Positions 30,097 through 57,110 of a stretch of 64,000 nucleotides of DNA are shown piece after piece. Position 1 is the stretch's first letter, and every line of letters begins with the position of its first letter. The stretch is from Chloroflexota bacterium (GTDB taxonomy: Bacteria > Chloroflexota > Anaerolineae > Anaerolineales > E44-bin32). The notes below the pieces were generated by a model that saw only the letters and a program-made list of their open reading frames with translations, ran no database searches and was not told where the DNA came from. The stretch covers positions 2,194 to 66,193 of the forward strand of contig JAJRUD010000139.1 in NCBI GenBank assembly GCA_024277995.1. The letters are read 5' to 3'. A program made the translations under genes and the position numbers.

Positions 30097-30321
30097 TTAC
30101 GGTGGGAGAAAGTCGTTCATCTGAGGGGCGTAGCCGATTTCATTGAGCAGGGCGATGATCTTCTCTTCGCTGGCCGGAGCCCCGAATTCTATGGTGACCC
30201 GCTTGCCGGCCGCCTCAGCCTTCACGGCCACGACGCCCTCCAACGCTGCCAGCGCCTTCTCGATGCTCTGGACGCAGTGCCCACAGGAGATATTGGGCAC
30301 GCCGTAGGTCACGATCTTCAT
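30097..30321 (-). CDS. heavy-metal-associated (HMA) domain protein, CopZ-like (CGHC variant)
   Basis: Last 74 aa of ORF 30097..30663: MKIVTYGVPNISCGHCVQSIEKALAALEGVVAVKAEAAGKRVTIEF. GGGAGG RBS 7 nt upstream of ATG 30321. The longer ORF N-terminus is non-protein-like. Confidence 0.8.
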   Translation of the reverse strand: MKIVTYGVPNISCGHCVQSIEKALAALEGVVAVKAEAAGKRVTIEFGAPASEEKIIALLNEIGYAPQMNDFLPP

Positions 30322-30742
30322 CGCAGCCTCCCGGTGGCATGGCTCCCAATCCTTAGATGCTGCCGCCGTCCTGAAGTTACCCCATCCGCCGATAGCCCCT
30401 ACATGCCTGCATGCCGATGCTCTCCATACCCCCTCCCCGAGGGGGCTCAGGCCATCGGCAGGATAAAGCGCCGCGCTGATGCTGTCAAGGTCCGGCTCCA
30501 CTGCATCAAAGGCCTTCCGGCTCGAATCCACCGCATTGCCGCCTTTCATGGAGCTGACAGACCTTTTCTTGCTGAATTCTCCGATATTTGCGATACTGGC
30601 ATAACATCCTTGCAATCCTCGGGGGGCTTCGCTCTTATCGCGCCAGGCCCTCCTGCGCTCCACAACCGCGCAGCATAGGCCGATGGCGGCCTGTCACATC
30701 ACGCGCTGGAAGTTCGTTACAGGATCAGCACGGCCTCGAAGG

Positions 30743-30800
30743 TGATCCCATCGTCAGGCCGCTTCTCGCATCCATCGCGCGGATGCTGGTCATGGGATCA
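30743..30800 (+). other. nested stem-loop in the 5' region of the 30832 gene (possible cis-regulatory RNA structure)
   Basis: The outer 9-bp stem tgatcccat (30743-30751) pairs with atgggatca (30792-30800). It encloses the 6-bp hairpin gcatcc-atcgcgc-ggatgc (30768-30786). The structure ends 31 nt before the ATG. Confidence 0.25.
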
Positions 30801-30831
30801 TCGCGATCAAGCCGACCGGCCCAGGCCATGA

Positions 30832-31746
30832 ATGGCCCGATGGAGTATCGCCGTGAGACCTCCCTTCGCTCGCCTGATGTTAGGCGTTTTCGGCCTCCTG
30901 CTCGTCGCCTGGAACAAGGACGCTCCTCCACCCCTACGTCCGACTCCCCCACCCATCCAGACCTGGTGGGACGCACCGCTCGATGGCTCACAGCTCCCGC
31001 TCGGGCCGGTGGATCTGACCTTCCACGGCGCCAGCCCGGCCGGTATCCAATCCTTCGACCTGCGCATCAACAGCACGACCTTCAAGACGGTCCCCCCCTC
31101 CGGCACCGGTTCGGGCGGATCGCAATACGGCACGCTCTTCTGGGGCGAAACCAGTTGGGAGCCCACCGCGCCAGGCTCCTACCTGCTCGAGGTGCGCTCA
31201 AAGGAGAGCGGCGGCCAGTTCGGACCCTTCGTTCAGGTGCAGGTGGTCATCGGCGAGGGCCTGCATGCTCAGATGAGCACGCCGCCTTCCCTGCAGCCCT
31301 CTCCTACCAGCACGCTGCCATCAGTCGAACTGACCCCCATCCCCTCCGCGACCGCCACTCCCGAAGCGCCGCAGGCGGGATTCTCCCCTCCATCCTTCTC
31401 CGCTGACACGATCTACTATCGCCTCGCCAGCTGCGGGCCGAAGGAGATCACGATCGAGATCACAGCCAACGACCCCCGGTCCTACAGCGTGGTGCTCTTC
31501 TACCGCCTGAAGGCGAAGGACGGCAGCGACCAGACGGCATGGTCCTCCGTGGCGATGAACCCGCAGGGCGGGGCTGCCTTCAGCCGGGCGCTGAACTCCG
31601 AAGCCGATTTTCCCGGCTTCGCCGCCTTCCCGGACGCTCTGCTTCAGGTGCAGTTCGTGGCCACCGACACACATGGCAACGAGGTGGCCCGCACGCCGGT
31701 TTTCTCCGAGGTGGAGTTCAAGGTCTGTTCTGCAGCTTCAGGATGA
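30832..31746 (+). CDS. secreted/membrane-anchored protein with Ig-like beta-rich domains, function unknown
   Basis: 304-aa ORF. Signal/anchor LMLGVFGLLLVAW, a Pro-rich linker, then two beta-rich regions separated by the PSLQPSPTSTLPSVELTPIPSATATPEAP linker. No obvious SD; the start could also be the internal ATG (MLGVF). Confidence 0.6.
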   Translation: MARWSIAVRPPFARLMLGVFGLLLVAWNKDAPPPLRPTPPPIQTWWDAPLDGSQLPLGPVDLTFHGASPAGIQSFDLRINSTTFKTVPPSGTGSGGSQYGTLFWGETSWEPTAPGSYLLEVRSKESGGQFGPFVQVQVVIGEGLHAQMSTPPSLQPSPTSTLPSVELTPIPSATATPEAPQAGFSPPSFSADTIYYRLASCGPKEITIEITANDPRSYSVVLFYRLKAKDGSDQTAWSSVAMNPQGGAAFSRALNSEADFPGFAAFPDALLQVQFVATDTHGNEVARTPVFSEVEFKVCSAASG

Positions 31747-33519: not shown

Positions 33520-34821
33520 CTAGTCGGAGATGGCCTGCGCCAGGCGCTCATGCTCGGCACGCTGACGCATCTGCTCTCGCAGGGTCTGAATGTCGCGCGG
33601 TACCAGATAAGCCGCGAAGCCCAATATCACCGACCCCAGCAGCCACGCCACGACGCAGATGACCAGGATCGCCACGTGCAGCGAAGAGCGCACGGCGATG
33701 ATGCCCGCCAGCAGTGGTGCCAGCGCCGCGCCGCCGTTCTCGATGAAGTACTGGATCGACAGCGCCGTGCTGCGCACCTCTGGCAGCGTGATGTCGTAAA
33801 CCGTCGAGACCACGTTGGGAGAAGCGAAGGGAATGAAGAGCGCCGTCGCGCTCAACAGCACCAGGAAAAGCGTCTGATTGCCCTTGGGCACCGCCATGGT
33901 GGCGCTGAGCAATACCGCCCCCAGCAGCACAGCCGCCATGGATACCAGCAGCCTGCCGCGCGGCGTGCGCTTGAAAAAGAAATCCCCCGCCAGCCCGCCG
34001 ATGAAATAGCCGGAGGCCAGCACCATCACCGCCACGCCCATGGTCAGCAGCACGGAGCCCTCGTCGTAGCCCCGTTCGGTCTCGAGGTAGCGGAAGAACC
34101 AGTACGTGATCACATTCCAGGGAAAGACCCCCACGAAGCCCTGGGCGAAGAGCAGCAGGAGTGAGCGCTTGCGAAAGAGTCCCATCGCCACCTTGCGGTC
34201 GAAGCGATAGACGCCGATCTGTTCCAGGTCCGCCAGCTCCGGTTCGCTGCGCCCGCGCGGCGCCTCGCGCACGCCGAAGAAGATCACCACCGCTAGCACC
34301 AGGCCCAGCGATCCGGTGACGTAGAACACACCCCGCCACCCCAGGACTCCGCTCAGCACGGTGGCTGCGATCAGGCCCAACATGTATCCCAGCGGCTGTG
34401 TGAGCTGCAGCAGGCCGTAGATCTTGCCCCGCACGCCCGGCTCGAAGTAATCGGCGATCAGGCTGTACAGGCCAGGGTAGCTGGAATCGTCGACGCCCGT
34501 CGAGGCGCGCGTCCCCAGGAAGGCAGGATACGTGGGGGCGATCGCCGAGAGCCAGGTCGTCGACCCCCATATGAAGGAGGCCAGCGCCAGCAGCTTGGCG
34601 CGCGCGTATCGATCGTAGAGATATCCCCACAGGGGATACATGACCGCCCCAACCAACAGCGCGCCCGTGAAGACCGCACCCATCTGGACCTCATTGATGC
34701 CGAAGGTCTCCATAATGGATGTGGTCAGGGGGCCTATGAGCAACTTGTCGGCCTGGTGGAGCAGCATGAAAGCGAAGAAGACTCCCACGACGAACCAGCG
34801 GTATCTCGGGCCAGTTCTCAC
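33520..34821 (-). CDS. MFS transporter
   Basis: About 12 TM helices, with the MFS loop motif GYLYDRYARAKLL between TM2 and TM3. I set the start at GTG 34821 (AGGAGG 5 nt upstream) rather than 34914, which would overlap mogA by 77 nt. Confidence 0.85.
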   Translation of the reverse strand: MRTGPRYRWFVVGVFFAFMLLHQADKLLIGPLTTSIMETFGINEVQMGAVFTGALLVGAVMYPLWGYLYDRYARAKLLALASFIWGSTTWLSAIAPTYPAFLGTRASTGVDDSSYPGLYSLIADYFEPGVRGKIYGLLQLTQPLGYMLGLIAATVLSGVLGWRGVFYVTGSLGLVLAVVIFFGVREAPRGRSEPELADLEQIGVYRFDRKVAMGLFRKRSLLLLFAQGFVGVFPWNVITYWFFRYLETERGYDEGSVLLTMGVAVMVLASGYFIGGLAGDFFFKRTPRGRLLVSMAAVLLGAVLLSATMAVPKGNQTLFLVLLSATALFIPFASPNVVSTVYDITLPEVRSTALSIQYFIENGGAALAPLLAGIIAVRSSLHVAILVICVVAWLLGSVILGFAAYLVPRDIQTLREQMRQRAEHERLAQAISD

Positions 34822-34837
34822 AGGTCCCTCCTGTTCT

Positions 34838-35353
34838 TCACGCGTGCGAATGAGGTGGCTGCCAGCGGTGGCCGGCTTCTGAATCGGGGGCTTCCTTGAG
34901 CAATGCGACGGCATGGGGCAGCGCCGGGAGGATCACCTCGAGGTTCTCCGTCGCGGCGCGTGGGCTTCCGGGCAGGTTCACGATCAGGGTGCGGCCGCGG
35001 ATACCGGCCACGGCCCGACTGAGCATGGCGTGCGGGGTCACGCGCAGGCTGGCGGAGCGCATGGCCTCGGCCAAGCCCGGCGCCAGGCGATCCACCACGG
35101 CCAGCGTGGCCTCCGGGGTGCGATCGCGCGCCGCGAACCCCGTGCCGCCGGTGGTCAGGATCAGGTCCATCTCCGCCGAATCGGCCCACGCCATGAGCGT
35201 CGCCTCGACTCGCTCCTGGTCGTCGGAGACCACCGCCCGGCGCACCACCTGCCAGCCCTGGGCGATGAGCATAGCCTCCAGCGCCGGCCCCGAGCGATCC
35301 TCGCGTTCCCCGCGCGCGCTGCGGTCGGAAACCGTCAGGATCCCCACTCTCAC
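34838..35353 (-). CDS. mogA: molybdenum cofactor biosynthesis protein MogA/MoaB (MPT adenylyltransferase family)
   Basis: 171-aa ORF. GILTVSDR, LILTTGGTGFAARDRTPEA, NLPGSP. Confidence 0.9.
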   Translation of the reverse strand: MRVGILTVSDRSARGEREDRSGPALEAMLIAQGWQVVRRAVVSDDQERVEATLMAWADSAEMDLILTTGGTGFAARDRTPEATLAVVDRLAPGLAEAMRSASLRVTPHAMLSRAVAGIRGRTLIVNLPGSPRAATENLEVILPALPHAVALLKEAPDSEAGHRWQPPHSHA

Positions 35354-35775
35354 CGCAGCCGCTTCCCCAACACGTACAGGTCCATCATTTCGACACCCAT
35401 ATGTTCATAGAACTGAATGGCCTGCTGGTTGTCCCTGGTGACCAGCAGGTAGTACTTGTAGCAGCCCTTGCTCAGCAGGCAGCGCTCCAGTTCCTCCATC
35501 AGGCGGCGGGCGATGCCCTGCCCCCGGCGCGCCGGCGTCACAGCCAGGTGATAGACCATGCCGCGCCGGCCGTCATAGCCCCCCATCACCGCTCCGATGA
35601 CGGTCCCATCACTTTCGGCCACCAGAAAGAGATCGGGGTCACGCTCCAGCTTGCGCCGGATCTCCTCCGGGCGATCCGAGAAGGAGAGCTGGATGCCCGG
35701 GCCGGCGTTCGACCAGAGGTCGAGCACACCCTGCAGGTCGCGGTCGAAGTCGAAGGTCCTTATGGTGATGCTCAG
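35350..35775 (-). CDS. GNAT family N-acetyltransferase (probable non-canonical CTG start)
   Basis: Acetyl-CoA motif LAVTPARRGQGIARRLM. The reading frame stays open upstream of the tracked GTG (35727) as LSITIRTFDFDRDLQG, which supplies the expected GNAT beta1-alpha1. GGAGG lies 6 nt before CTG 35775. 4-nt overlap with mogA. Confidence 0.75.
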   Translation of the reverse strand: MSITIRTFDFDRDLQGVLDLWSNAGPGIQLSFSDRPEEIRRKLERDPDLFLVAESDGTVIGAVMGGYDGRRGMVYHLAVTPARRGQGIARRLMEELERCLLSKGCYKYYLLVTRDNQQAIQFYEHMGVEMMDLYVLGKRLR

Positions 35776-35862
35776 CGTCGGCCTCCAAAGGACGGCGCGG
35801 CCGATGCAACAGCCGCGTCGCGTACTGTGTATGCCGCTGTGGCTGCCTCGCGCCAGACGGGC

Positions 35863-37620
35863 TCATTCCCCGTCGGCGCCGACCACCAGCTTCCAATCCC
35901 CGTGCACGCCGTCTTCGGTGACGCCGAAGTACAGCCGAATCCCCTCCGGGCTGCGCTGCGCCAGATCGAAGCGCTTGCGCTTGCCGTGGCGGCGGGCCTT
36001 GAGCAGGCCCAGGTCCCCATGCCAGGTGATCGGGGCGAGCTTCAAATCCGCGGGGAGGTTCTTGTATTCCGAGATGGCGTAGTGCCACAGACGCCGGGCC
36101 GAGGATTCGGTCACGTTCTTGACCACGTTGCCGTTGCGCAGATCGCGCATGGTGTAGTAGCGGACGCCGTCCCGCTCATCGACCCGAACGATTTCAACGC
36201 CCGTGCGCGGCGGCGGCGTGCCGGCTTCGGCCGTCTCGACAGGTTCAGGCGCAGCCTCCGCCACGGGGGGAGCTTCGGCCAGCGCGGCGGCGACGGCCTC
36301 TTTGCGCCCGCGCAGGACAAGCTGTACGATCTCGTCCCGCACCGCCAGACCCGTCTCGGCCTCGTCGCGAACGTAGATCTTGTTGTCGTCGACGGCGTAG
36401 GGAGGGTCCTCGCCCCTGGGGACGAGTACGCGTATGATGGTCTTCCCCTGCGTCTCCTGTGTGTCCACCTGGCACTGCAGGGGCGGGCTGATGCGGTTGC
36501 TGATCTCGCGCTGCAGGCGCTTGACCGCCTCCTTGGGGTTGGGAACTCCGGCGGGCGGCTTCTTGGGGTCGGCGCTCGCCCCGACGTACAGCGTCCCGCC
36601 ATTGGTGTTGGCGAAGGCGCACACATCGGCGATGATGGCGTACAGCCGTCCGCCGCGCACCGTCATGCTCTCGTGAAAATCCTGGACGATGCTGGGGCCT
36701 TCCTCGCGCGCCTGGCGGATGAAATCGTACTCCTGCTCTGGCGCCTGATCCTTCGTCGGCCGCTGCGGCCGCGTGCGGGCGAAGTCGTTGCTCAAGAAGA
36801 GCGCCTTGAGAGCCTCAAAGCTCACCTCAGGCAACAACACCTCCGTCGCCCGATCCCCCACACCCAGGTTCTTCTTGTTCTTCGGATCCGTCCGCAGTCG
36901 ATGGGCGTCCGATCCCTGGATGCAGTGCATGCGCCGCGGGTACTCGGGCTTGGTGCCATTGAAGAAAGCCGCCGTCGAGCGACGCCCCTTCTGGCCCAGG
37001 TCCGTGACCTCCAGGGCGTGCAGGTGAGGATCCTGGGTGTAGGCGATCTTCGTCTGCCCGCCGAAGGGGAAACCACGCATGGCCACCCCATTGGTCGAAT
37101 TGGCATGAGCCGCGATGGCGAGCCCTCCAGCCTCGTCGATCAGCCGGTAGGCCGTCAAGACGTCGCTCGTCGCCCCTACCGTCGAGGAGCCGTCGTCCAA
37201 CTGATCGGGCGGGATGTTCAGGCTCAGCAGCAGGTGCTCGATCTCGCGCACCGTCTTCTCCGGCGAGAATATGCCCAGGATGTGGAAACCGAAGGTGGCG
37301 GTGAATTCGAAACCGGGCAGCACCAGGATCTTCTTCAACAGGCGTCGGTATTCTTTGAGACGGCCTTTCTCCTCCTCCGTCAGGCGGCCAAGGCCCTCCA
37401 ACAGCTCGAGCTGCTGGATCTCCTCCTGCATGCGGCGGTAGCCGGCTACGGTATTGTGGTCGGCGATGGCGATGATCTCCAGGCCGCGGGCTTCTGCCCG
37501 ATGTAAGACGTCCAGGCATGAAACGTTCGCTTCCTGGTAATCACTGGATGCTGGCGTGTGGATATGAAGATCCATCAAGTGCCAGTGTCTCGATGCGTTG
37601 CGTCCTTTGCGTCTTGCCAC
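35863..37620 (-). CDS. PHP-domain phosphoesterase/nuclease fused to AlbA_2 (Schlafen-type) DNA-binding domain and an uncharacterised C-terminal domain
   Basis: 585-aa ORF. The N-terminus W.LMDLHIHTPASSDY...IAIADHN...GFEF...HANS...GSDAH is the PHP His/Asp set. The middle region LYAIIADVCAFANTNGGTLYVGA...GKTIIRVLVPRGEDPPY resembles AlbA_2. The last ~150 aa are unassigned. Confidence 0.75.
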   Translation of the reverse strand: MARRKGRNASRHWHLMDLHIHTPASSDYQEANVSCLDVLHRAEARGLEIIAIADHNTVAGYRRMQEEIQQLELLEGLGRLTEEEKGRLKEYRRLLKKILVLPGFEFTATFGFHILGIFSPEKTVREIEHLLLSLNIPPDQLDDGSSTVGATSDVLTAYRLIDEAGGLAIAAHANSTNGVAMRGFPFGGQTKIAYTQDPHLHALEVTDLGQKGRRSTAAFFNGTKPEYPRRMHCIQGSDAHRLRTDPKNKKNLGVGDRATEVLLPEVSFEALKALFLSNDFARTRPQRPTKDQAPEQEYDFIRQAREEGPSIVQDFHESMTVRGGRLYAIIADVCAFANTNGGTLYVGASADPKKPPAGVPNPKEAVKRLQREISNRISPPLQCQVDTQETQGKTIIRVLVPRGEDPPYAVDDNKIYVRDEAETGLAVRDEIVQLVLRGRKEAVAAALAEAPPVAEAAPEPVETAEAGTPPPRTGVEIVRVDERDGVRYYTMRDLRNGNVVKNVTESSARRLWHYAISEYKNLPADLKLAPITWHGDLGLLKARRHGKRKRFDLAQRSPEGIRLYFGVTEDGVHGDWKLVVGADGE

Positions 37621-37650
37621 GAAGTCCTTGCTCCCTTGGGAAAGCGACCT

Positions 37651-38019
37651 TTATCTCGGGCCGCCTTCGCCGAGGTTCTCTTGGATGAGCGATACCAATT
37701 GATCGGGCGTATAGGGTTTCAGCAGGAAGCCATCCGCGCCGGCTTCCTTGCATCGGTCTTCCAGATCCATGCCGGAGGTCATGATCACACGCACGTGCTT
37801 CAGCTCTGGGCTGGATCGCAATCGGCGCAGCAGATCGACGCCGTCGACGTCCGCCAGGAAAATGTCCATCAGGACCACCTCGGGGCGCTCGCGTTCGATG
37901 GCGGGCAGGATGGCGTCCTTGTGTGCGACGTGAGACACCTGGTATCCATCCATCTCGAGCAGCGTCTTCAACAGGGACACCATGTTGCCGTCGTCGTCGA
38001 CGATCATGACTCTGGCCAT
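37651..38019 (-). CDS. single-domain response regulator (CheY-like receiver)
   Basis: 122-aa ORF. DDD acidic pocket, phospho-acceptor in VVLMDIFL, T in IMTSG, K in LLKPY. GGAGG RBS. Confidence 0.92.
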   Translation of the reverse strand: MARVMIVDDDGNMVSLLKTLLEMDGYQVSHVAHKDAILPAIERERPEVVLMDIFLADVDGVDLLRRLRSSPELKHVRVIMTSGMDLEDRCKEAGADGFLLKPYTPDQLVSLIQENLGEGGPR

Positions 38020-38046
38020 CAGGCGCCCTCCCCCGTCAGGCGGCTC

Positions 38047-39942
38047 TCACGCATCGGCAGCCCTCTTCTTGTTCCCAGCCCCGCGGGCTACCTTTGGCAT
38101 CGCGTCCTGCTCACCCTTGGCGGGGCCGGACCGCTCGCCTTTCGCCCTGCGGGTCGTCTTCTTGGCCGGCCGCTTCCTCTTTTTCGGTTCCAGGGCGGCG
38201 TTCAGGACGTCGAACACTGTGTCCGCAAAGATGAATTTCATCTCGCTGCGGACCTCCTCCGGCACGTCCTCCAGGTCGACCTCGTTGCGCCGGGGCAGGA
38301 TGATGGCCTTCAAACCTGCCCGATGGGCGGCGAGCACCTTTTCCTTGATCCCGCCCACAGGCAGCACCTTGCCGCGCAGCGTGATCTCACCCGTCATGCC
38401 CACGTCGTGACGCACCGGACGCCCGGTGGCCAACGAGGCCAGGGTCACGGCCATGGTCACGCCTGCCGAGGGACCGTCCTTGGGCACCGCTCCGGCGGGG
38501 ATGTGCAGGTGAATGTCGTGCTTCTTCCAGTATTCATCGGACACCCCCAGCTCCTTCGATATGGAGCGCACGTAGGAGAGGGCGGCGCGTGCAGATTCCT
38601 GCATCACCTGACCCAGCGACCCCGTGAGCTGGAAGTCGTGGCCGCCGGGCATGGCGGTGGCCTCGATGTAAAGGATCTCGCCCCCGGTGGGCGTCCACGC
38701 CAACCCCGCCGCCACGCCGGGCAGCGAAACGCGTTCGGCGACATCCTCCATGCGCCGGAAGCGCTGCTTCCCCAGATGCTCCGTCACCAGGTCGGGGGTC
38801 ACCGTGACGCGCTCGACCTTCCCGCTGGCGATCTGGACGGCTACCTTGCGGCAGACGCGGCCGATCTCGCGCTCCAGGTTGCGCACGCCAGCCTCGCGCG
38901 TGTAGCCGCGGATGATGTGCATGAGCGCTTCGTCGCTGAATTCGATCTCCTCTTGCCGCAGGCCGTTCTCGCGTATCTGCCGCGGGATCAGATACCCCTT
39001 GGCGATGGCCACCTTTTCGCGGTCGGTGTATCCCGAGAGCTGGATGACCTCCATCCGGTCCAGCAGCGGCGGCGGGATGGTTTCCAGCCAGTTGGCGGTG
39101 GCGATGAACATCACCTGCGAGAGGTCGAAGGCCACCTCCAGGTAATGATCGCGGAACTCCCGGTTCTGCTCCGGGTCCAGCACCTCCAACAGGGCCGAGG
39201 CCGGATCGCCGCGGAAATCGCGCCCCAGTTTGTCCACCTCGTCCAACATGAAGACCGGGTTACGGGTCTCCACGCGACGCAGAGCCTGCAGCACACGCCC
39301 GGGCATGGCGCCGATGTAGGTGCGCCGATGGCCGCGGATCTCGGCTTCATCGTGCACGCCGCCCAGGGAAATGCGCACGAACTTGCGCCCGGTGGCGCGG
39401 GCGATGGAGCGACCGAGGGAGGTCTTGCCGACGCCGGGCGGGCCGACGAAGCACAGGATCACGCCCTCACGCTCGCGCCGGATTTCGTCCACCGGCTGCT
39501 GCTCCATCTCCACCCCGCGCTCCAACCGCAGCTTGCGCACGGCCAGGAATTCCAGGATGCGCTCCTTCACGTCCTCCAGACCGTAATGGTCCTCATCCAG
39601 CACGCGACGCGCGTTCTCCAGGTCCAGGTTGTCCTCGGTGATGCTGGACCATGGCAGCGAGACCAGCCAATCGAGGTAGGTGCGGATGACGCCGTACTCC
39701 GCCGCCGCGGTCGGCAGGGTGGCCAGTCGATCCAGCTCGCGGCGGGCCTGCTTCTCGGCCTCTTCCGGCATGTGGGCGGCCTCGATCCGCTTGCGGAACT
39801 CATCCACCTCGGCCGCCTGCTCGTCCGTCTCCCCCAGTTCGCGCTTGATGGCCTTCAGCTGCTCACGCAGGAAGTACTCGCGCTGCACCTTCTCGATCTC
39901 GGTGCGGGCCTCCTGCTGGATCTGCTGCCCCAGCGTGAGCAC
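38047..39942 (-). CDS. lon: Lon protease, AAA+ and protease domains. This is the C-terminal 631 codons of a lon gene split by an in-frame TAG (alternatively one pseudogene or recoded gene, 38047..40671).
   Basis: Walker [10 protein letters not shown], Walker B FMLDEVDK, and the protease motif [18 protein letters not shown] with the catalytic Ser. The ORF begins at GTG 39942, the codon directly after the TAG at 39943-39945. Confidence 0.85.
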
Positions 39943-40671
39943 CTACACCTCGCGGCTCAATATGGTGTTCAGGCGCTTGAGCTTGGCCAGCGTGGAGTCT
40001 TCCTCCAGGATCGCCTCGGCCTCCTCCAGATCCATGCGCTGGTAGTTGGCGATGGTATAGGCGACTTCCAGAGGGTCATCCAGGACCAACACGCTGCCCA
40101 GGATCTCGCGCGGGATGGAGGGGGCCATCTCCACAATGCGCTGGAACTGGTCCTTGGCGGCGCGCATCTGCGCCTCGATCTCCACCCCCTGCTCGACGCT
40201 CTCCGGCCGCAGCTCGATGCGCGCCTTGAGGTAGGGCTCCAGGGCGACGAAGTCCTTGAGTTCAAAGCGCGCCAGCCCCTGGACGATCAGGCGTATGGTG
40301 CCGTCGGGGGCTCGGAAGAGACGATGGATGGCCGCCACGGTCCCGTAGCGGTAGACGTCCTGCGGCCCGGGCACTTCCAGTTCCGGGTCCTTCGAGGCCA
40401 CCAGGCCGATGAGCCGATCCTGGGCCACCACGTCGTCCACCAGCTTGATGGAGCGCGGCTGGCCGATGGTCAGGGGAAGCGGGGTGTGCGGATAGACCAC
40501 GACGCCGCGCAGCGGCAGGATGGGCAGGACCTCAGGGATGTGTTGCGGCTCACTCCGTCCGTCCGAGCCCACCTGCTCGCTCGTGCTCTTGACGTCAACT
40601 TGTGCCGGCCCCGAAGAGGGATCCTCTTCCACCGCCTGCTTGTCGCTGTGTCGTTTCTCTTCTTCCGTCAT
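39943..40671 (-). CDS. lon: Lon protease N-terminal substrate-binding (LON) domain, 242 codons ending at an in-frame TAG
   Basis: LPILPLRGVVVYPHTPLPLTIGQPRSIKLV is the LON-domain start. This ORF is in the same frame as 38047..39942 and contiguous with it. ATGA overlap with hsp20. Confidence 0.85.
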   Translation of the reverse strand: MTEEEKRHSDKQAVEEDPSSGPAQVDVKSTSEQVGSDGRSEPQHIPEVLPILPLRGVVVYPHTPLPLTIGQPRSIKLVDDVVAQDRLIGLVASKDPELEVPGPQDVYRYGTVAAIHRLFRAPDGTIRLIVQGLARFELKDFVALEPYLKARIELRPESVEQGVEIEAQMRAAKDQFQRIVEMAPSIPREILGSVLVLDDPLEVAYTIANYQRMDLEEAEAILEEDSTLAKLKRLNTILSREV

Positions 40672-41072
40672 CGCTCGGATATATCTGTTTCTATGGATTC
40701 AATCGCCTTTTTCGGCATGATCACCCGCAGGAAGCCGTCCTGATACAGCGCCTCGATGCCATCCGGATCTATCGCACCGGGCAAGGCTACCTCCGAGAGG
40801 AACTCACCGTAAGCGATTTCCATCTGGTGATATGCCCCCAAATCCCGGCGCTCACGCCGGTTGCCGCGGATGGTGAGCTTGCCTCGCTCAAAGGTGACGT
40901 CGAACTCATCCGCTTGCATGCCCGGGATCTCAACCAACACGACATAAGCGTGCTCGGTCTCGAACAGATCCGTGGGCGGATGCCAGCCATGAGCGTAGCG
41001 CCTGATGCGCCACGCGTACTCCACTGAAACCCAGCCTCTCGGCATGTCAGCAGGATCCTGTTGGTCGCTCAT
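40668..41072 (-). CDS. Hsp20/alpha-crystallin family small heat-shock protein
   Basis: 134-aa ORF. WHPPTDLFETEHAYVVLVEIPGM...AYGEF...LPGAIDPDGIEALYQDGFLRVIMPK is the alpha-crystallin domain. Confidence 0.92.
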   Translation of the reverse strand: MSDQQDPADMPRGWVSVEYAWRIRRYAHGWHPPTDLFETEHAYVVLVEIPGMQADEFDVTFERGKLTIRGNRRERRDLGAYHQMEIAYGEFLSEVALPGAIDPDGIEALYQDGFLRVIMPKKAIESIETDISER

Positions 41073-41113
41073 CGCAATCGCCCATGGGGTACGCGATTCC
41101 TAAGGCACAGGCC

Positions 41114-41119
41114 ATTCTA
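41114..41119 (-). promoter_or_regulatory. candidate -10 box (TAGAAT) for hsp20-lon
   Basis: Minus-strand ...GCGCTATGGTAGAATGGCC lies about 42 nt upstream of the hsp20 ATG in an AT-richer patch. No convincing -35, and no CIRCE-like inverted repeat. Confidence 0.3.
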
Positions 41120-41206
41120 CCATAGCGCAACGCTACATAAGTGCCGTCGCAGACCCCTCAACCGACCCGTCCAGGGCCCCCAATCCCACCCGCCGAACCG
41201 GCGAAA

Positions 41207-41962
41207 TCAGAATTCAATCTCCATCAGATCCGTCGCCAATGCCACTTCCCCCGCATAGGTCTGAGAGGCCTCCTCGACGAGGCTTTCTGCCGGAAAGGAA
41301 CCCGTCGGATAGTGGATCAGGAGCAGCCGCTCCACCTGGGCCTGCCGGGCGATGCCACCCGCTTGCGAGGCCGAGGAATGGCCCACTCCACGCCCCGTGG
41401 CCTCATGGATCAGCACCTGCCCGCCGGCAGCCAGATTGACAACCGTAGGACACGGCTCAGTGTCGCACGAATAGGCCACGGCTTGGCCGGAACGCGGAGA
41501 CTCGAAGCGCAGCCCGATGGTGGGGATCAAGTGACGCACGGGCGAAGCCAGGATGCGCAGGTCCGGCTTTTCCAGCACCAGCACATTCTCCTGCTCCGGC
41601 AGGCGATGGAAGGCGACCTGGAAGAAACTCGGCCAATTCTCCCAGTGGTAGAAGGCCATCATGTCTTCCAGACGCTCGAGGCAGTGGTGCAGGCCATAGA
41701 TGCGCAGGGGCTTTCGACGCCCCAGCAGCCACATGTTCATCAAGAGCAGCGGCACGCCGGAGACGTGATCGGGGTGGAAATGCGTGATGATGAGGTCGCT
41801 GATGTCCTCCAGCGACAGCCCGGCCTTGGCCAGGCGGACGATGGGCGTGCCCACGCAGTCGACGAGCACCGCCCCCTCCTGCCCGACCACAGCCAGATGG
41901 CTGTTCTCGTGATTCTCATCCGGTATCGCGCTCGCTGACCCCAGGATGATGACTTTCGGCAT
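41207..41962 (-). CDS. MBL-fold metallo-hydrolase (RNase Z/beta-lactamase-like)
   Basis: 251-aa ORF. ITHFHPDHVSG is the HxHxDH motif; downstream His/Asp residues are conserved. Confidence 0.85.
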   Translation of the reverse strand: MPKVIILGSASAIPDENHENSHLAVVGQEGAVLVDCVGTPIVRLAKAGLSLEDISDLIITHFHPDHVSGVPLLLMNMWLLGRRKPLRIYGLHHCLERLEDMMAFYHWENWPSFFQVAFHRLPEQENVLVLEKPDLRILASPVRHLIPTIGLRFESPRSGQAVAYSCDTEPCPTVVNLAAGGQVLIHEATGRGVGHSSASQAGGIARQAQVERLLLIHYPTGSFPAESLVEEASQTYAGEVALATDLMEIEF

Positions 41963-41963
41963 A

Positions 41964-43403
41964 TCATGACCCCGTCAGCAACGCCAAGGCGACGCGCGGT
42001 GTGACGAAAACTTCCAGCAGGGCCGCGAGGACCAGCAGGGGCAGAACCAGTCCCACGGACAGCCGGGCCCATTCGCCCAGCGCCGCCAGCCAATTCTGGC
42101 TCAACGTCTTGCCGTGCGACAGACCCAGCACCGCCAACCCCAGTTGCAGTATAGCAGCCCCCGCGATAAGCATGGCGGGGACCTCGGCCACGGCGTGTGG
42201 GATGACCAGGGCCAACAGGAAACGAATTGTATCGTGACCGGCGAGCGCCATGTTTCCGCTGAAGTAGCCGATGATCGCCATGGGCGTCATAAGCAGGATG
42301 AGGGAGACTACGCCGAAGGAAAACACGCCGAGCAGCGTGGCCAACAGCAAGGCCCGTATGTTGTTGACGAGAATGAAGGCCCACCCTCGGCCGCTCATCA
42401 GGCCGAAGCGCAGCATCTCCTTCAGCAGGCCCGAGCCGAGTCGATCCAGATCGAGCAGGTCGGCCGGCAACGTGAAGCGCTGCGCCATGAACCAGCCGAT
42501 GGCAAAGCCCGCCGCCAGAGTCCCTGCGACAATGGCGACAGGAACCCACGCCCGGGGCAGCGATCGGGTGATAACAGCCCTAAACCATGCCGCAGGGCTG
42601 CGCGCCTCGCCCCGGAAGGCGGTCCAGAATTCCCCCCAAACCCAACGCGGATTGAGCGCGTCGATCTCTCGCCCCAGCAGCTCTTCACGATTGAAGAGCC
42701 GAATCCCCATGCGGCCCAACACACCGGCGATGAGGAACAATCCAAAGACGATCCACCAAAGGACGCTGTATCGCCCCCAGAACATGATCACGCTCTCGCC
42801 GATGATCAGTTGGGAGATGGGGATGATGAGGAAGGATGCCAGCAGATTGGCGGCACGCACCGAGGTCGTCTGGGACGAGATCACCACCGCCCCCGTCACC
42901 ATCACCACCGCCTGGGCAGTGGTCAGCAACAACACCTGCATGAGCAATTGGAAAGAGGGGTACCATTGCATGCGCAGGGCCAGCCCCAGCAGGTAGACGA
43001 AGATGCCCAGATAGGCTGCGAAAAGGGGCATCGCGAGGGAGGCGATCAACTTGCCCGCATAGAGCTGCAGATCGCTGAGCGGTGTGGCCAGCAAGGGCTC
43101 GATGGACAGCCGCTCTCTCTCACCAGCGAAGCTCTCGAGCGCGATGACGAGCGAGATGGAGATGGGGAAGAACCCCACAACCATGAGCAGGAAAGGGACC
43201 AGCCGCTCGCCGATCAGCGCCGCCCCATAGCGGCTCACGAAATCCACCGCCTGCTGGGCGGTGAAATTCATCAAGACGGGAAAGAAGAGCGTCAGCAGGA
43301 TGATCGGCGTGAGAATGCGCCAATCACGCAGTTGATCGCGGATCTCTCGCCGGGCGACGATCCAGGTCCCCTGGAAGCCGCCCAAGGCACTCTCACGCAT
43401 CAA
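41964..43403 (-). CDS. ABC-2 type permease fused to a SpoIIM/DUF95-like C-terminal membrane domain
   Basis: 479-aa ORF. The N-terminal ~230 aa have 6 TM helices of ABC-2/NatB style. The C-terminal half carries ...GYFSGNMALAG...PHAVAEVPAMLIAGAAILQLG, which resembles stage II sporulation protein M-type domains. 11-nt overlap with the ATPase gene. Confidence 0.7.
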   Translation of the reverse strand: MMRESALGGFQGTWIVARREIRDQLRDWRILTPIILLTLFFPVLMNFTAQQAVDFVSRYGAALIGERLVPFLLMVVGFFPISISLVIALESFAGERERLSIEPLLATPLSDLQLYAGKLIASLAMPLFAAYLGIFVYLLGLALRMQWYPSFQLLMQVLLLTTAQAVVMVTGAVVISSQTTSVRAANLLASFLIIPISQLIIGESVIMFWGRYSVLWWIVFGLFLIAGVLGRMGIRLFNREELLGREIDALNPRWVWGEFWTAFRGEARSPAAWFRAVITRSLPRAWVPVAIVAGTLAAGFAIGWFMAQRFTLPADLLDLDRLGSGLLKEMLRFGLMSGRGWAFILVNNIRALLLATLLGVFSFGVVSLILLMTPMAIIGYFSGNMALAGHDTIRFLLALVIPHAVAEVPAMLIAGAAILQLGLAVLGLSHGKTLSQNWLAALGEWARLSVGLVLPLLVLAALLEVFVTPRVALALLTGS

Positions 43404-44334
43404 CGGCCCCCTCGTCCCCCTCGACGACCTGCAGGTAGACCTCCTCCAAAGTGCGATCGACCTCGGAGAGCGTCACGACCGGCAGCCGGGCACGTGCCAT
43501 GGCGGCCAGCACTCGCGGATTGTCCTCTTCAGGGGCATCCGTTCGATAGCGCAGCCAGTCATTGCCCGTCTCGACAAGCTCGATCCCGGGGGGCATGTGT
43601 TGCAGCACGCCGTTCAATGGGCAGGCCAGGCGCAGCTCCATGATCGGCTCTCCCAGCATGGCCCGCTTCAGCGCGTTCGGCGACCCTTCGGCCACCAGCC
43701 GCCCGCGCCGGATGATGGCGATCCGATCCGCGATGGCCTCGGCTTCGGTCAGGTTGTGGGTGCAGACGATGATGGCACGCTTCGCCGAACGCAGGGATCG
43801 AATGCTCTCGCGCACGACCTTGGCGCTGGCCGGGTCCATGGCCGAGGTGGGCTCGTCCAGCAGCAGGACGGGCGGGTCATGCAGGAGCGCCCGCGCCAGG
43901 GCCAGTTTCTGGCGCATTCCACGCGAAAACTCGCCCAACCTGCGGCGTTCCTCCCCCTGCAGGCCATAGCGCAACATGAGCATTCGCGCTCGCCGGCGCG
44001 TCTCCGCCTCAGTCAGGCCATAGGCTCTGCCGAAGAAGAGCAGGTATTCCTCCGCCTGCATACGCGTGTATAGGCCATGATGCTCGGTGAGCAGGCCGAT
44101 GGAGCGGCGCACCTCACGCGGCTGGCGCACCACGTCATAGCCAGCCACGCGCGCCTCGCCGCGCGTCGGCTGCAGTATCGACGCCAACATGCGGATGGTC
44201 GTGGTCTTCCCCGCACCGTTGGGCCCCAGCAGGGCCAGCACTTCACCCGGCTGAACGGCAAAGGTCAACCCCTCGACAGCCTGCAGCTGGTCGAAGTGCT
44301 TGCTCAGATCGCGGGTTTCTATCAGAGGCTTCAT
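43393..44334 (-). CDS. ABC transporter ATP-binding protein (ABC-2/NatA type)
   Basis: Walker A GPNGAGKTT, signature FSRGMRQKLALA, Walker B LLLDEPTSAMD. ATG 44334 is preferred over TTG 44340. Confidence 0.92.
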   Translation of the reverse strand: MKPLIETRDLSKHFDQLQAVEGLTFAVQPGEVLALLGPNGAGKTTTIRMLASILQPTRGEARVAGYDVVRQPREVRRSIGLLTEHHGLYTRMQAEEYLLFFGRAYGLTEAETRRRARMLMLRYGLQGEERRRLGEFSRGMRQKLALARALLHDPPVLLLDEPTSAMDPASAKVVRESIRSLRSAKRAIIVCTHNLTEAEAIADRIAIIRRGRLVAEGSPNALKRAMLGEPIMELRLACPLNGVLQHMPPGIELVETGNDWLRYRTDAPEEDNPRVLAAMARARLPVVTLSEVDRTLEEVYLQVVEGDEGAVDA

Positions 44335-49479: not shown

Positions 49480-50121
49480 TCAGCTCTCCTGCGTCGCGGC
49501 CCGTTCCGCGGCCTCACGCTCCATCTCGGCGATGGCGTTGGCCACAGCCTCGATGGCTACACGCTGCTTGCGGTACAGATCGGCCTCGGACATGGCCAGG
49601 CGCATGGCCACGTCCCGCACCTTGCGACCCTCGAGGAATTTCAGCTCGAGGATGTTGTACAGCATCCATTCGGCCGTAAAGCGCCTTTCCCCCTCCGGTC
49701 GCATGCGATCGATCCCCCTGCGCAGGATGGCGCGCAGCGCGTTCACCGGATTGCCGTCGTGCTCCTGCATGGCCTCCCGCACCACGCGCAAGCGCAACAG
49801 CGGGCTTTGCGTCAGGCGCGGCCCGCCCCAGTAATGCCCCAGCGCCTCACGCACCATCTGCGCCAGATCGGCATCGCCGGGCAATTCATCCAGCGAGCCA
49901 GTGAGCGCCGGAGACCCCACATAGCGCGCCATGGCTCGCATGCGCTGGATGGCTTCCACCTTCGGCACCAGGCGGTCCACCACTGCAAAAACATCGCGCT
50001 GCAGCAGCCGATCGGCCAGGGCCACCGCCGCGCGATCGGCCAGGGCGCTCACACCCTCTGCCTGCTCATCTCCGAGAGCAGGTCGGCTGTCGGTGCGGCG
50101 CAGCCCAAGCAGCCCGATCAC
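49480..50121 (-). CDS. C-terminal part (end of GAF domain + HTH, sigma-70 region-4-like) of a membrane sensor-regulator split by an in-frame TAG
   Basis: The ORF begins at GTG 50121, directly after the TAG at 50122-50124. IGLLGLRR...AEGVSALADRAAVALADRLL is the last strand and helix of a GAF fold. The C-terminal YNILELKFLEGRKVRDVAMRLAMSEADLYRKQRVAIEAVA is HTH-like. Confidence 0.6.
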   Translation of the reverse strand: MIGLLGLRRTDSRPALGDEQAEGVSALADRAAVALADRLLQRDVFAVVDRLVPKVEAIQRMRAMARYVGSPALTGSLDELPGDADLAQMVREALGHYWGGPRLTQSPLLRLRVVREAMQEHDGNPVNALRAILRRGIDRMRPEGERRFTAEWMLYNILELKFLEGRKVRDVAMRLAMSEADLYRKQRVAIEAVANAIAEMEREAAERAATQES

Positions 50122-51405
50122 CTAGTCCGAATCCGGCGAACGCAGCGGCAGCAGCCAGTAGGCATCCCACGCGAAGAGCGTGCCGAGCGCATCCACGTTG
50201 AGTTTCTCATCGGTCACGAGCAAGGGAGGCAACTCCTCCCCGCCGCGCAAGGGGTCGTCCGGGCCTACGCTGACCTCGAGCTCGAGGCCCTGGTCTCCCA
50301 ACGCCGCCACGAAGGCCGACGGCGCTTCTGTGATGTCGCAGACGGCGTTCAGCACCGCCTCCAGGAACTGTTTCAGGTCGCCGGTGGTGAGCAGGCGCTC
50401 CTCCAGGAGGTGCAGGCGGGCCATGTCTTCCCGGTCTTCTCCGTAGAAAAGCCAGCGCTCGATGGGCGGGCGGATTAGCGTGATCACGTATTGCAGCAGG
50501 AGGATGGTCGTCACCATGGCGAAGGGAACGGCCCGGCTGCGTTCCAACCCCAGCAGCAGGCCGACGCGGTTGACAACCACCGTGACGGCCAAGGTAGAGG
50601 AGGCCACGACCGGCCCGCGCAACAACCACTGGAAGAGCCTGCTCTTGATCACGCGATCCGGGATGCCGACGCCGAAGTAGGCCACGGCATAGGCCATCAT
50701 CACCAACAGGATGGCCACCAGCGTGTTCACAGCCGTCAGTGTGAACCAGAAGAGCAGCGAGGCTCTCGCGAGCGGGGTGTTGCCCAGGGCCATGAGAAAG
50801 GGGAAGGTACCCAGGACGGGGCCGAGCGATCCCAGCATCAGGTAGGCCATACGACGACGGCTGGTTCGGGTCAGGCAGCGGCGGTAGGCGCGCCCGTAAT
50901 TGAGCGCTGCGAAGCCCAGGGTGAAGGTGAAATAAAGCAGGAAAAGCGGGAAGAGGCGCCCCGGCTGCAGGTAGGCCGCCGCATCGGCCTGGGCCAGCGG
51001 GCCAGCCAGTTCGTCGCTCAGCGCCGCGACGAGCGCGCCGGCCCCGGCCACGACGTAGGCTATCCGCACCGCCAGGCGCCGCCGACCGCGCGATGGCCGC
51101 CCGGTGGCCGCCATCAAGGCATCGGAAAGCTGCAGGTATGCCGCGGGGAGAAAACTGATCCCCAGCCATTGCAGCCGCAGCCAGAGTTCAACCTCGTGTG
51201 GGTCATCCGTGGTCCCGCCCAACACGTCAAAGAAATAGGTGGCGGCGACGCACAGCAATACCAGGGCCAGCGCGCGCGCCACCCGTTCGCGCAGGTTGAA
51301 GGTCAACGCATAGAGCAGCAGCGAGAAGGCCGTGATGGCATTGCCCGCATTGAGGATCTGATTCAGCACCAGCAGGGTGCTCATCATTGCCTGAGAGAAG
51401 TCCAT
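50122..51405 (-). CDS. N-terminal part (about 8 TM helices + first two-thirds of a GAF domain) of the same split sensor-regulator
   Basis: 427 codons ending ...AYWLLPLRSPDSD-TAG. The ORF is in frame with 49480..50121 and contiguous with it (1926 nt total). Confidence 0.6.
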   Translation of the reverse strand: MDFSQAMMSTLLVLNQILNAGNAITAFSLLLYALTFNLRERVARALALVLLCVAATYFFDVLGGTTDDPHEVELWLRLQWLGISFLPAAYLQLSDALMAATGRPSRGRRRLAVRIAYVVAGAGALVAALSDELAGPLAQADAAAYLQPGRLFPLFLLYFTFTLGFAALNYGRAYRRCLTRTSRRRMAYLMLGSLGPVLGTFPFLMALGNTPLARASLLFWFTLTAVNTLVAILLVMMAYAVAYFGVGIPDRVIKSRLFQWLLRGPVVASSTLAVTVVVNRVGLLLGLERSRAVPFAMVTTILLLQYVITLIRPPIERWLFYGEDREDMARLHLLEERLLTTGDLKQFLEAVLNAVCDITEAPSAFVAALGDQGLELEVSVGPDDPLRGGEELPPLLVTDEKLNVDALGTLFAWDAYWLLPLRSPDSD

Positions 51406-56195: not shown

Positions 56196-57110
56196 CTACG
56201 CCTTCCTCTCCCTCGGATCGAGCAGCACCAGTAGCCCCAGGGTCCCCATATCCGCGAAGAGCAGCGGAGCCAGCACCGGAGCACCGCGCAAGAACCGCTC
56301 GCCGACCAGCGTGCCACGGGAGGTGAGGTTGACGTCGATGTGCAATACCGCGCCCACCACACCCACAAACACCAGCAAGACCATGCTCAGGGCATAGAGC
56401 GTCAGGTCGCTGCGCGTCGGCCGATCGAGCGCGCCCAGAGCCACCGCCGCCACGGTTCCGATCACCCCCGCCAGCGTGGGTATCCAGAGCCAGGGGTTCT
56501 GGAACTGGACTCGCGCGTGATCCAGTACGCTGCTGATGAGCGTGGCGAGCGTGCCCATGCCCACCATGAAGAAGTAAGCGCGCGTCTTGCTGTAGGGCAG
56601 CTGCAGGCGACGGTCCCCGAAGAGGATCAGCGTGCCGCTGTCAGGCGGATCTTCGACCCAGGCTGCGCTGATCCCCAACAGGCCGATCAGCGAAAAGGTG
56701 AGCGGCCCCAGGATGGGCGGTGCCCAGACCAGCAGGTCGATGGAGACACGCTGGCCCGGCAGCGCATAGGGAAGGATGGCGCGCAGCAAATGAAAATAGG
56801 CACCCAACAGTCCTACGGCGATGCTGGCCAGGAAGGCCGTCGTGGCCAGGACCGTGGCCAGCGGCCGATTGCGCAGCGCGATCAGCCCGGCGATCAGCAG
56901 AACGGCTCCCGCGAGCGGGCCGAAGATGATCGGGATCCACTCGTTGGGGACGATGGTGCCGCTGATGCTGTGGGCCAGGTAGATGTCCAGCCCCAGAAAG
57001 ATCTCGTTGACGGCGGCCATGAGCAGCATCCACTGATCCCGGCTGAGCGGCAGGCGGCCCTCCAGTCGGCCCGCCGCGGGCCAGACGGCGGAGAGATACG
57101 AGGTGCTCAC
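56196..57110 (-). CDS. polytopic membrane protein translationally coupled to the octaheme cytochrome (possible heme-b/quinone-interacting subunit)
   Basis: 304-aa ORF with about 8 TM helices and no CxxCH. Four His in or near predicted helices (YLAHS, AYFHLL, VLDHAR, AVLHID) occur as two similar halves. 4-nt overlap with the cytochrome gene. Confidence 0.65.
   Translation of the reverse strand: MSTSYLSAVWPAAGRLEGRLPLSRDQWMLLMAAVNEIFLGLDIYLAHSISGTIVPNEWIPIIFGPLAGAVLLIAGLIALRNRPLATVLATTAFLASIAVGLLGAYFHLLRAILPYALPGQRVSIDLLVWAPPILGPLTFSLIGLLGISAAWVEDPPDSGTLILFGDRRLQLPYSKTRAYFFMVGMGTLATLISSVLDHARVQFQNPWLWIPTLAGVIGTVAAVALGALDRPTRSDLTLYALSMVLLVFVGVVGAVLHIDVNLTSRGTLVGERFLRGAPVLAPLLFADMGTLGLLVLLDPRERKA

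Follow-up and report, generated by a model that had tools for sequence, protein, structure and literature searches.

The lonA gene of an uncultured Anaerolineales bacterium is interrupted at codon 243 by a TAG derived from GAG (Glu) through a single G>T change in the gene strand, and an unrelated gene in the same window (the whole 64,000-nucleotide stretch of DNA that was analyzed) carries the same lesion in front of a GTG codon. We tentatively favor the reading that the stop in lon is a non-programmed lesion, a very young nonsense allele that is possibly tolerated through restart of translation at the adjacent GTG.

Results

One TAG divides lon inside the connecting helix

Translation of lonA (38047..40671, minus strand) gives 875 codons with one internal stop, a TAG at 39945..39943 (minus strand, codon 243) that is followed directly by GTG (39942..39940, minus strand), which is the ancestral codon for Val244 and could serve for restart. 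This agrees with a first-pass annotation of this DNA, which had described two contiguous minus-strand open reading frames in one frame, separated by one TAG and then GTG. The DNA around the stop reads cgc-GAG-GTG-TAG-GTG-ctc, and a GAGG sits 5 nt upstream of the second GTG. A chance open reading frame was ruled out as the origin of this arrangement, since both flanks are strongly coding in the same frame and the two pieces tile the TIGR00763 lon model.

The N-terminal piece (39946..40671, minus strand, 242 codons) contains the whole LON substrate-binding domain (Pfam LON_substr_bdg, PF02190, positions 1 to 200 of 200, E = 9e-47) and the first ~11 residues of the connecting helix. The C-terminal piece (38047..39942, minus strand, 631 codons plus TGA) contains the rest of this helix, the AAA+ module, the lid, and the S16 protease, with matches to Pfam AAA (PF00004), Lon_lid (PF22667), and Lon_C (PF05362; positions 2 to 204 of 205, E = 4e-84). 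The Walker A (GPPGVGKT) and Walker B (FMLDEVDK) motifs, the catalytic serine (PKDGPSAG), and the catalytic lysine (GGIKEK) are all readable, which bears out the earlier statement that both halves are otherwise intact. On TIGR00763, the N piece covers positions 1 to 206 and the C piece 211 to 795, and the C piece on its own reaches 870.9 bits, the cutoff being 608 bits; Lon of the sister genome (see below) scores 941.7 bits over positions 1 to 795, which is the whole model. Thus, the LON domain, the AAA+ module and lid, the S16 Ser-Lys dyad, and the equivalog-level score expected of a LonA are all found, and what departs from LonA is the reading frame, which is uninterrupted in the orthologs and the sister and is broken here at codon 243.

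The order of LON N domain, connecting helix, AAA+, lid, and S16 protease is that of LonA (TIGR00763; closest solved structure, Meiothermus taiwanensis Lon, PDB 7FID and 7FD4), and the PDB match to M. taiwanensis Lon has an E value of 2e-229. Unlike that protein, the window copy is cut by a TAG, which aligns with Glu201 of M. taiwanensis Lon (7FID) and lies ~11 residues past the start of the collar-forming connecting helix and coiled-coil (50 residues). The first-pass annotation had aligned the stop with the LonA linker, and this position and the Glu found there in 120 of 120 orthologs bear it out. The window lon also carries low-complexity tails of ~45 residues at the N terminus and ~45 residues at the C terminus that are absent from the structural homologs.

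Upstream of lon lies hsp20 (40668..41072, minus strand; Pfam HSP20), whose TGA overlaps the lon ATG (ATGA, 40671..40668); this overlap had been noted before and is seen in the same layout in the sister contig, where the called hsp20 start corresponds to an alternative ATG at 41045. A gene for a single-domain response regulator (37651..38019, minus strand; Pfam Response_reg) follows 27 nt downstream of lon, in the same order as in the sister, and would be exposed to polarity if lon translation ended at the TAG. A promoter and terminator scan around the hsp20-lon operon gave nothing useful.

The stop in lon is derived from a conserved glutamate codon

The only close relative is GCA_024275265.1 (the sister), whose lon is 92.8% identical to the window lon at the nucleotide level, with no indels and with 150 synonymous and 31 nonsynonymous codon differences. 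Codon 243 of the sister lon is GAG, and in a MAFFT alignment the stop column holds Glu in 120 of 120 orthologs, so the sense codon that the earlier annotation proposed to look for in related lon genes is there and its suggestion that one substitution turned GAG into TAG fits the nearest genome. The ortholog codons listed for this site are GAA, GAG, or GAC, and those at the position of Val244 are GTG, GTC, GTA, ATG, or GTT. The lon TAG is therefore a derived state, reached from GAG by one G>T change. The same annotation took a sense codon in a related genome as a sign of an assembly error, which goes too far, since such a codon shows only that the TAG is derived and is silent on whether the mutation is real.

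Among 382 alignment columns with at least 95% conservation, the TAG is the sole deviation specific to the window lon; ten further columns depart from the consensus in both the window lon and the sister, and at nine of these the two have an identical residue. The dN/dS ratio relative to the sister is 0.055 before the stop and 0.064 after it (dS, 0.28), values that average over the whole divergence and are uninformative on the time since the stop arose. By our estimate from these sequence comparisons, a dead lon would have to be younger than roughly 2 to 3% of the lineage's branch. The 90% protein cluster of this Lon consists of the two window pieces and the sister protein only; the GTDB representative genomes include neither the window genome nor the sister, and the best relative among them is 79% identical in amino acid sequence. 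A split lon was absent from the sister, the 120 orthologs, and 80 genome loci. A search for the exact junction, its variable base set to N, had 0 matches in JGI metagenome contigs, as did one for a degenerate junction pattern with TAG, the latter run without a positive control.

A second gene carries the same lesion

The window contains a second in-frame TAG-GTG, ~10 kb from lon, that is absent from the earlier annotation. It lies in a gene for a 7TM-GAF protein (49480..51405, minus strand), in which the TAG at 50124..50122 is followed by GTG. The N-terminal piece (50122..51405, minus strand) has 427 codons plus the TAG and matches HisKA_7TM, and the C-terminal piece (49480..50121, minus strand) has 213 codons and begins with the GTG right behind the TAG. 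The homologs are single proteins of 634 to 672 amino acids that cover 95 to 100% of the read-through sequence, and the column of the stop holds Glu in 103, Asp in 12, and Gln in 4 of 119 homologs. When the stop is read as Glu, GAF_3 matches residues 343 to 464 above the gathering score, and so the stop, at residue 428, falls inside the GAF domain; no GAF match was found in either piece taken alone. We found no clear Shine-Dalgarno (SD)-like sequence upstream of the GTG in this gene.

Since the same GAG>TAG-GTG lesion is present in the 7TM-GAF gene, its cause is not specific to lon. Together with the GAG in the sister, this points to a mutation of very recent origin or to an error in sequencing rather than to a designed two-piece protease. 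Of the 5,045 possible nonsense changes, 841 start from GAG and 37 are GAG>TAG followed by GTG, and therefore a second random nonsense change would share this class with a chance of ~0.007. GAG is, by the same count, the likeliest chance origin of a TAG. For a free-living bacterium, two nonsense changes among 58 genes that show no frameshift is also a high number.

The window assembly looks clean otherwise

The window contains no Ns, and 8,898 bp aligned to the sister show no gaps. Some 55 other genes appear intact, with full-length domain matches; no frameshifts were seen when Pfam domain completeness was assessed for about 50 genes, and a codon-model scan of the window returned only the two TAGs and normal gene boundaries. 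The lack of Ns, gaps, and frameshifts argues against a generally error-prone consensus. The substitutions between the window and the sister (436 transitions and 263 transversions) form an ordinary spectrum, on which ground a mutator or 8-oxoG signature was rejected. Wholesale conversion of GAGGTG was also rejected, as the window has 57 intact GAGGTG hexamers versus 9 TAGGTG, most of the latter being natural ACC-TAY codons on the opposite strand.

TAG terminates ordinary genes in the window

TAG ends 12 of the 56 called genes of the window, including those for GAPDH, DegV, an S1 protein, and DsbD_TM, in which domain matches reach the normal C terminus; genome-wide reassignment of TAG, which would make it rare as a terminator, was rejected on this count. 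The window contains no tRNA and no match to an Rfam element. Compared to shuffled sequences, RNA folding downstream of the stops gave z scores of -0.33 for lon, which is no better than shuffled, and -2.4 for the 7TM-GAF gene, and the two sites have no RNA structure in common. No TAG-GTG case was found in 80 related loci (1.28 Mb of related genomes), in a scan made noisy by antisense frames.

Discussion

The first-pass annotation had offered a very recent nonsense mutation or a base-call error as one possible explanation of the broken lon, and this option fits the GAG in the sister, the invariant Glu of the orthologs, the equal purifying selection on both sides of the stop, and the lack of other damage. 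Its two halves have to be weighed against each other. If the change is a consensus or base-call artifact, which we regard as a real possibility, both sites are GAG in the organism and a T was miscalled in the G-AGGTG context (C>A on the plus strand), perhaps through a sequence-specific sequencing, polishing, or low-coverage error. This would account for an identical base change in an identical hexamer (GAGGTG to TAGGTG) in both genes, which a random nonsense mutation would match with the low chance given above, and for strongly conserved Glu codons being struck in both without other damage there; the unmatched TAG junctions in JGI metagenome contigs and proteins without submitter annotation, as in an unannotated MAG, are also consistent with it. 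The 57 unchanged GAGGTG hexamers, one of them directly upstream of the lon TAG, argue against such an error, as do the ordinary substitution spectrum and an assembly that does not look noisy (no frameshifts, Ns, or indels relative to the sister). We know of no sequencing error mode with a GAGGTG context, and a literature search for the sequencing platform of GCA_024275265.1 found nothing. Decoding of the TAG at both sites, by an amber suppressor tRNA (the simplest being tRNA-Glu(CUC) with its anticodon changed to CUA) or by context-dependent readthrough, so that full-length Lon and 7TM-GAF proteins are made, is improbable in our view. Both TAGs replace Glu codons in genes that are otherwise perfect, G follows both stops, and neutral GAG>TAG drift would yield, by a rough estimate from branch length and the G>T share, a few sites per 840 GAG codons, which is the right order of magnitude. 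Against this stand the GAG in the sister lon, a share of TAG terminators that is typical and not depleted as expected with efficient suppression, the lack of a tRNA, Rfam element, or shared downstream RNA structure in the window, the lack of a comparable case in the 1.28 Mb of related genomes, and the rank of GAG as the likeliest chance source of a TAG. Programmed recoding would come with a stop conserved in relatives and a stimulatory RNA signal; neither was found, and the context-dependent readthrough proposed earlier thus finds no support, all the more as TAG ends about 12 ordinary genes. A broader proposal, to which we give little credence and slightly less than to decoding itself, is that the lineage tolerates GAG-to-TAG changes at Glu codons before GTG, either by TAG decoding (for example, by a Glu-inserting suppressor from tRNA-Glu(CUC)) or by instant restart, with Lon and the 7TM-GAF protein staying functional; if so, the two TAGGTG sites would not be accidents but the part that we can see of a pattern running through the genome.

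That lon has evolved into a two-piece protease, with an N domain and an AAA+ protease made by termination-reinitiation at TAG-GTG and assembled non-covalently, had also been suggested and is very unlikely. The stop lies just past the end of the Pfam LON domain, the GTG that abuts it has GAGG 5 nt upstream, a gene caller accepted the 631-amino-acid open reading frame from this GTG, and dN/dS is low in both halves. But the SD-like and GTG signals are unchanged ancestral Glu-Val-Glu-Val codons, in a GAGGTG...GTG context that is the same in the sister but for one base and varies synonymously in other orthologs, whereas a naturally split protein would have its own evolved start signals and a split common to relatives, and none of the relatives examined (the sister, the orthologs, and the genome loci) has one. 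The cut also falls inside the connecting helix and coiled-coil, not at a flexible linker; the low dN/dS spans the whole divergence and is silent on the period after the stop; and the same lesion splits the GAF domain of an unrelated gene, which no design explains. Still more improbable is that lon is an old pseudogene and the genome is shedding genes. The internal stop, in a gene that normally runs uninterrupted, and another broken gene close by would suit this, but a decaying pseudogene should show relaxed selection or extra lesions, and we found low dN/dS on both sides (0.03 to 0.06), no indels relative to the sister, no deviation other than the TAG that sets the window apart at the 382 conserved columns, and intact catalytic motifs and neighboring genes.

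In the very young nonsense allele that we tentatively favor, an ordinary LonA (endopeptidase La) in an hsp20-lon operon would have undergone a recent G>T transversion that turned the GAG of the invariant Glu243 into TAG. The allele would be real, either polymorphic in the population or recently fixed, and not an evolved feature. Ribosomes would terminate after a 242-residue N-domain fragment, and some would probably restart, because an in-frame GTG abuts the stop with GAGG upstream. Translational restart at start codons adjacent to amber mutations is a classical phenomenon, as in the lacI and T4 rIIB restart proteins. The lon site resembles that setting in its premature stop, the in-frame GTG close behind, and the purine-rich stretch upstream, with restart here being a prediction; the 7TM-GAF gene differs in having no obvious SD-like sequence. 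The lon context was not selected for this purpose, being the ancestral Glu-Val-Glu-Val coding sequence itself. Restart would give a 631-residue Lon without the globular N domain and would protect the response-regulator gene downstream from polarity.

This predicted product resembles engineered truncated Lon constructs (E. coli Lon 253-784 and M. taiwanensis Lon 242-793, PDB 4YPL) in being an AAA+ protease without the globular N domain, and such constructs are hexameric; unlike them, the natural fragment would retain some 40 additional connecting-helix residues. E. coli Lon without the N region (253-784) still forms hexamers and degrades HspQ and casein poorly (PMC8835725), and so full function is not expected of the 631-residue product. 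An N-less Lon would probably still be hexameric but poor with substrates, and lon function is therefore likely reduced rather than preserved. The matching lesion in the 7TM-GAF gene suggests either that this lineage retains nonsense changes chiefly at sites where a restart codon right behind them may soften their effect, or that a sequence-context-specific process may create them. A restart filter accounts for the GTG and not for the shared GAG. The tolerance argument is also weak for the 7TM-GAF gene, because a protein whose GAF domain is split is unlikely to function.

The lon stop is like the short-lived in-frame stops described in bacterial genes (Belinky et al. 2021, PMC7918605) in being one nonsense substitution in a conserved gene under purifying selection. 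That study used stops shared by at least two genomes to rule out artifacts (PMC7918605); unlike those stops, the one in lon is known from one assembly alone. We found no description of a repeated TAGGTG context in Belinky et al. 2021 (PMC7918605).

For now, the lon and 7TM-GAF case is mainly a quality flag. Automatic annotation would list two fragments of Lon and two of a signaling protein, although the organism almost certainly carries, or carried until very recently, a single gene for each. One close relative and a conservation profile suffice to show that such a stop is derived and very young, and the scan of the whole window shifted the question from an odd lon gene to a repeated GAGGTG-to-TAGGTG lesion. 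If both stops are real and more such sites exist in the genome, they could reflect natural amber suppression or restart-buffered nonsense mutations in a free-living bacterium.

Results

The lonA reading frame (38047..40671, minus strand) translates as 875 codons with a single internal stop, a TAG at codon 243 (39945..39943, minus strand) that is followed directly by a GTG (39942..39940, minus strand) in the context cgc-GAG-GTG-TAG-GTG-ctc. The upstream piece, of 242 residues, contains the whole LON substrate-binding domain (PF02190, positions 1 to 200 of 200), and the downstream piece, of 631 residues, has the Pfam AAA, Lon_lid, and Lon_C domains. These pieces cover positions 1 to 206 and 211 to 795, respectively, of TIGR00763 (the NCBIfam lon equivalog), and the C-terminal piece on its own scores above the family cutoff. 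Walker A, Walker B, the PKDGPSAG serine, and the GGIKEK lysine are unbroken, and an ATGA overlap joins hsp20 to the lon start; both the split and the coupled hsp20-lon arrangement are as the first-pass annotation, a reading of the sequence alone, had described them. The hsp20 gene (40668..41072, minus strand) has two candidate starts, an ATG at 41072 that yields 134 amino acids and an in-frame ATG at 41045 that corresponds to the 125-amino-acid call in the closest relative genome (GCA_024275265.1, here the sister). No sigma-70-like promoter was found upstream of hsp20 in a simple scan.

The lon-bearing contig of the sister (L001, 8,898 bp) matches window positions 34711..43608 along its entire length, with identical gene order, 92.1% identity, 699 mismatches, and 0 gaps. 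This absence of gaps extends to intergenic stretches and to the fast-evolving Lon tails, and a total lack of indels at such identity is somewhat unusual. Within lon, 188 of 2,625 bases differ, with no indel, giving 150 synonymous and 31 non-synonymous codon differences, the majority of the latter in the low-complexity tails at the two ends of the protein. The protein database places the 874-residue full-length Lon of the sister (P0122) in one 90% cluster with the two window pieces (P0059 and P0121). Codon 243 of the sister is GAG, and Glu occupies the stop column in all 120 sequences of an alignment of the sister and 119 more Lon proteins (72 to 80% identical, from Anaerolineales and Chloroflexota MAGs), which shows that the TAG is derived, via one G>T transversion. 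The first-pass annotation had proposed this GAG-to-TAG substitution and had suggested looking for a sense codon in related genomes, which is what the sister and the orthologs have. In Meiothermus taiwanensis Lon, the residue aligned with the stop is Glu201. Numbered as in the closely related Thermus enzyme, whose 50-residue connecting helix (190 to 240) includes the coiled-coil segment CC2, the site falls about 11 residues into the helix, inside CC2 (PMC8835725).

The age of the stop was assessed from divergence between the window and the sister (dS = 0.28). In lon, the segment upstream of the stop has a dN/dS of 0.055 and the downstream segment one of 0.064; restricted to the folded core, the corresponding values are 0.035 and 0.032. 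Of the 382 lon alignment columns with conservation of 95% or more, 11 deviate in the window; 9 of these deviations are common to the sister and 1 column differs in both genomes, leaving the TAG as the sole window-specific deviation. An old lon pseudogene is contradicted by the low dN/dS on both sides and by the lack of any other window-specific change in these columns. With about 860 non-synonymous sites in the conserved columns, zero hits among them, a branch dS of about 0.14, and neutral evolution assumed since the stop, we estimate that lon may have been dead for at most roughly 2 to 3% of the window lineage's branch, which would make the stop very young, spurious, or not disabling.

Besides the TAG in lon, a scan of the window for stops flanked on both sides by coding sequence in the same frame found an ordinary gene boundary and a second TAG (50124..50122, minus strand), again with GTG directly after. 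This TAG lies in a gene (49480..51405, minus strand) for a 7TM (HisKA_7TM)-GAF protein of about 640 amino acids and separates a 427-codon ORF with the HisKA_7TM match from a 213-codon ORF that has no Pfam match. Homologs are single proteins of 634 to 672 residues that cover 95 to 100% of the read-through sequence, and the TAG column in 119 of them holds Glu (103), Asp (12), or Gln (4), usually followed by Val. Placing Glu at the TAG gives a GAF_3 match above the gathering score at residues 343 to 464, which places the stop (residue 428) inside a globular GAF domain. Both lesions would most simply be GAG-GTG to TAG-GTG changes, and the stop-forming lesion is not specific to lon. Single-base changes could create a stop in the window's genes in 5,045 ways, and 37 of them (0.73%) belong to this class; a coincidental repeat is unlikely (p ~0.007, computed post hoc). 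The 120 nt from the second TAG (50005..50124, minus strand) fold at -64.2 kcal/mol (z = -2.4, matched by 2 of 200 shuffles); the equivalent lon stretch folds no better than shuffled sequence (z = -0.33).

TAG terminates 12 of the 56 called genes in the window, with domains running to a normal C terminus, which rules out TAG reassignment. The hexamer GAGGTG is kept in 57 copies, one of them immediately upstream of the lon TAG, and this rules out its wholesale conversion; the remaining TAGGTG copies examined in coding sequence are natural codons, and one copy is intergenic. We found no tRNA and no Rfam family within the window, and the sequences following the two stops share no RNA structure. 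The substitution spectrum between the window and the sister is ordinary. Overall, the assembly is not noisy: domain matches in about 50 other window genes are full-length with no sign of frameshifts, and the contig contains no Ns and shows no indels relative to the sister contig. No comparable TAG-GTG case was present in 1.28 Mb of related genomes, and a search of JGI metagenome contigs, run without a positive control, gave no recurrence of TAG at lon codon 243.

The first-pass annotation had also pointed to a Shine-Dalgarno-like element and a start codon at the break. Both are present, as a GAGG 5 nt upstream of the GTG that the lon stop abuts, but they are ancestral coding sequence and did not evolve for reinitiation. 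The sister's GAGGTG-GAG-GTG encodes Glu-Val-Glu-Val, part of an SREVEVL stretch common to close orthologs, and other orthologs have GAA, GAG, or GAC followed by GTG, GTC, GTA, or ATG, with ordinary synonymous variation.

Several other features of the window were recorded. Downstream of the response regulator gene, 35863..37620 (minus strand) encodes a 571- to 585-amino-acid protein with an N-terminal PHP-domain match and a Schlafen/AlbA_2 domain; this unusual architecture adjoins the hsp20-lon-response regulator group and is kept in the sister (570 amino acids). At 22650..25058 (plus strand) lies an 802-amino-acid NACHT NTPase with C-terminal HEAT repeats, a STAND-type architecture frequently tied to defence or signalling. 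Five large genes in series, overlapping or abutting (13185..21862, minus strand; 364 to 752 amino acids), look like one membrane-protein operon, with weak YfhO membrane-protein matches in two and no Pfam match in three. No convincing gene and no Rfam family could be assigned to a 687-bp stretch (30322..31008), and the calls on either side of it (30097..30321 and 31009..31746) lack known domains. The region 56196..58390 (minus strand) encodes a 427-amino-acid multi-haem cytochrome c with about seven CxxCH-type matches, translationally coupled by a 4-nt overlap to a 304-amino-acid protein with no Pfam match.

Discussion

Our analysis supports the lon TAG being a non-programmed single-base lesion: lonA is otherwise ordinary, and the TAG is derived and very recent or spurious. 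The pair of options raised in the first-pass annotation, a very recent nonsense mutation or a base-call error, fits the derived TAG and the strong purifying selection. Its other options, a two-piece Lon and context-dependent readthrough, fared poorly. An evolved two-piece Lon made by termination-reinitiation is very improbable, with the signals at the break being ancestral codons, and amber suppression or readthrough is scarcely less so, given the absence of an Rfam element or shared RNA structure and the use of TAG as an ordinary terminator; each fails every defining test that we ran.

Between the members of that pair, we lean slightly and tentatively toward a real, very young nonsense allele over a consensus error, because the assembly is otherwise clean, because in-frame stops are a known, common and short-lived feature of bacterial genes (PMC7918605), and because a stop is most apt to persist for a while where a start codon directly adjoins it. 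We infer that ribosomes could plausibly restart at the GTG after the lon stop, as a by-product and not an adaptation, and such a restart would limit polarity and might yield a protein with partial activity; E. coli Lon lacking the N region still forms hexamers and degrades substrates poorly (PMC8835725). A consensus error is quite possible, since a context-specific error would yield the same hexamer at two conserved Glu codons, an observation that, together with a split GAF domain that is hard to tolerate, counts against a real allele. The repeat of the TAGGTG lesion in lon and the 7TM-GAF gene is the remaining curiosity.
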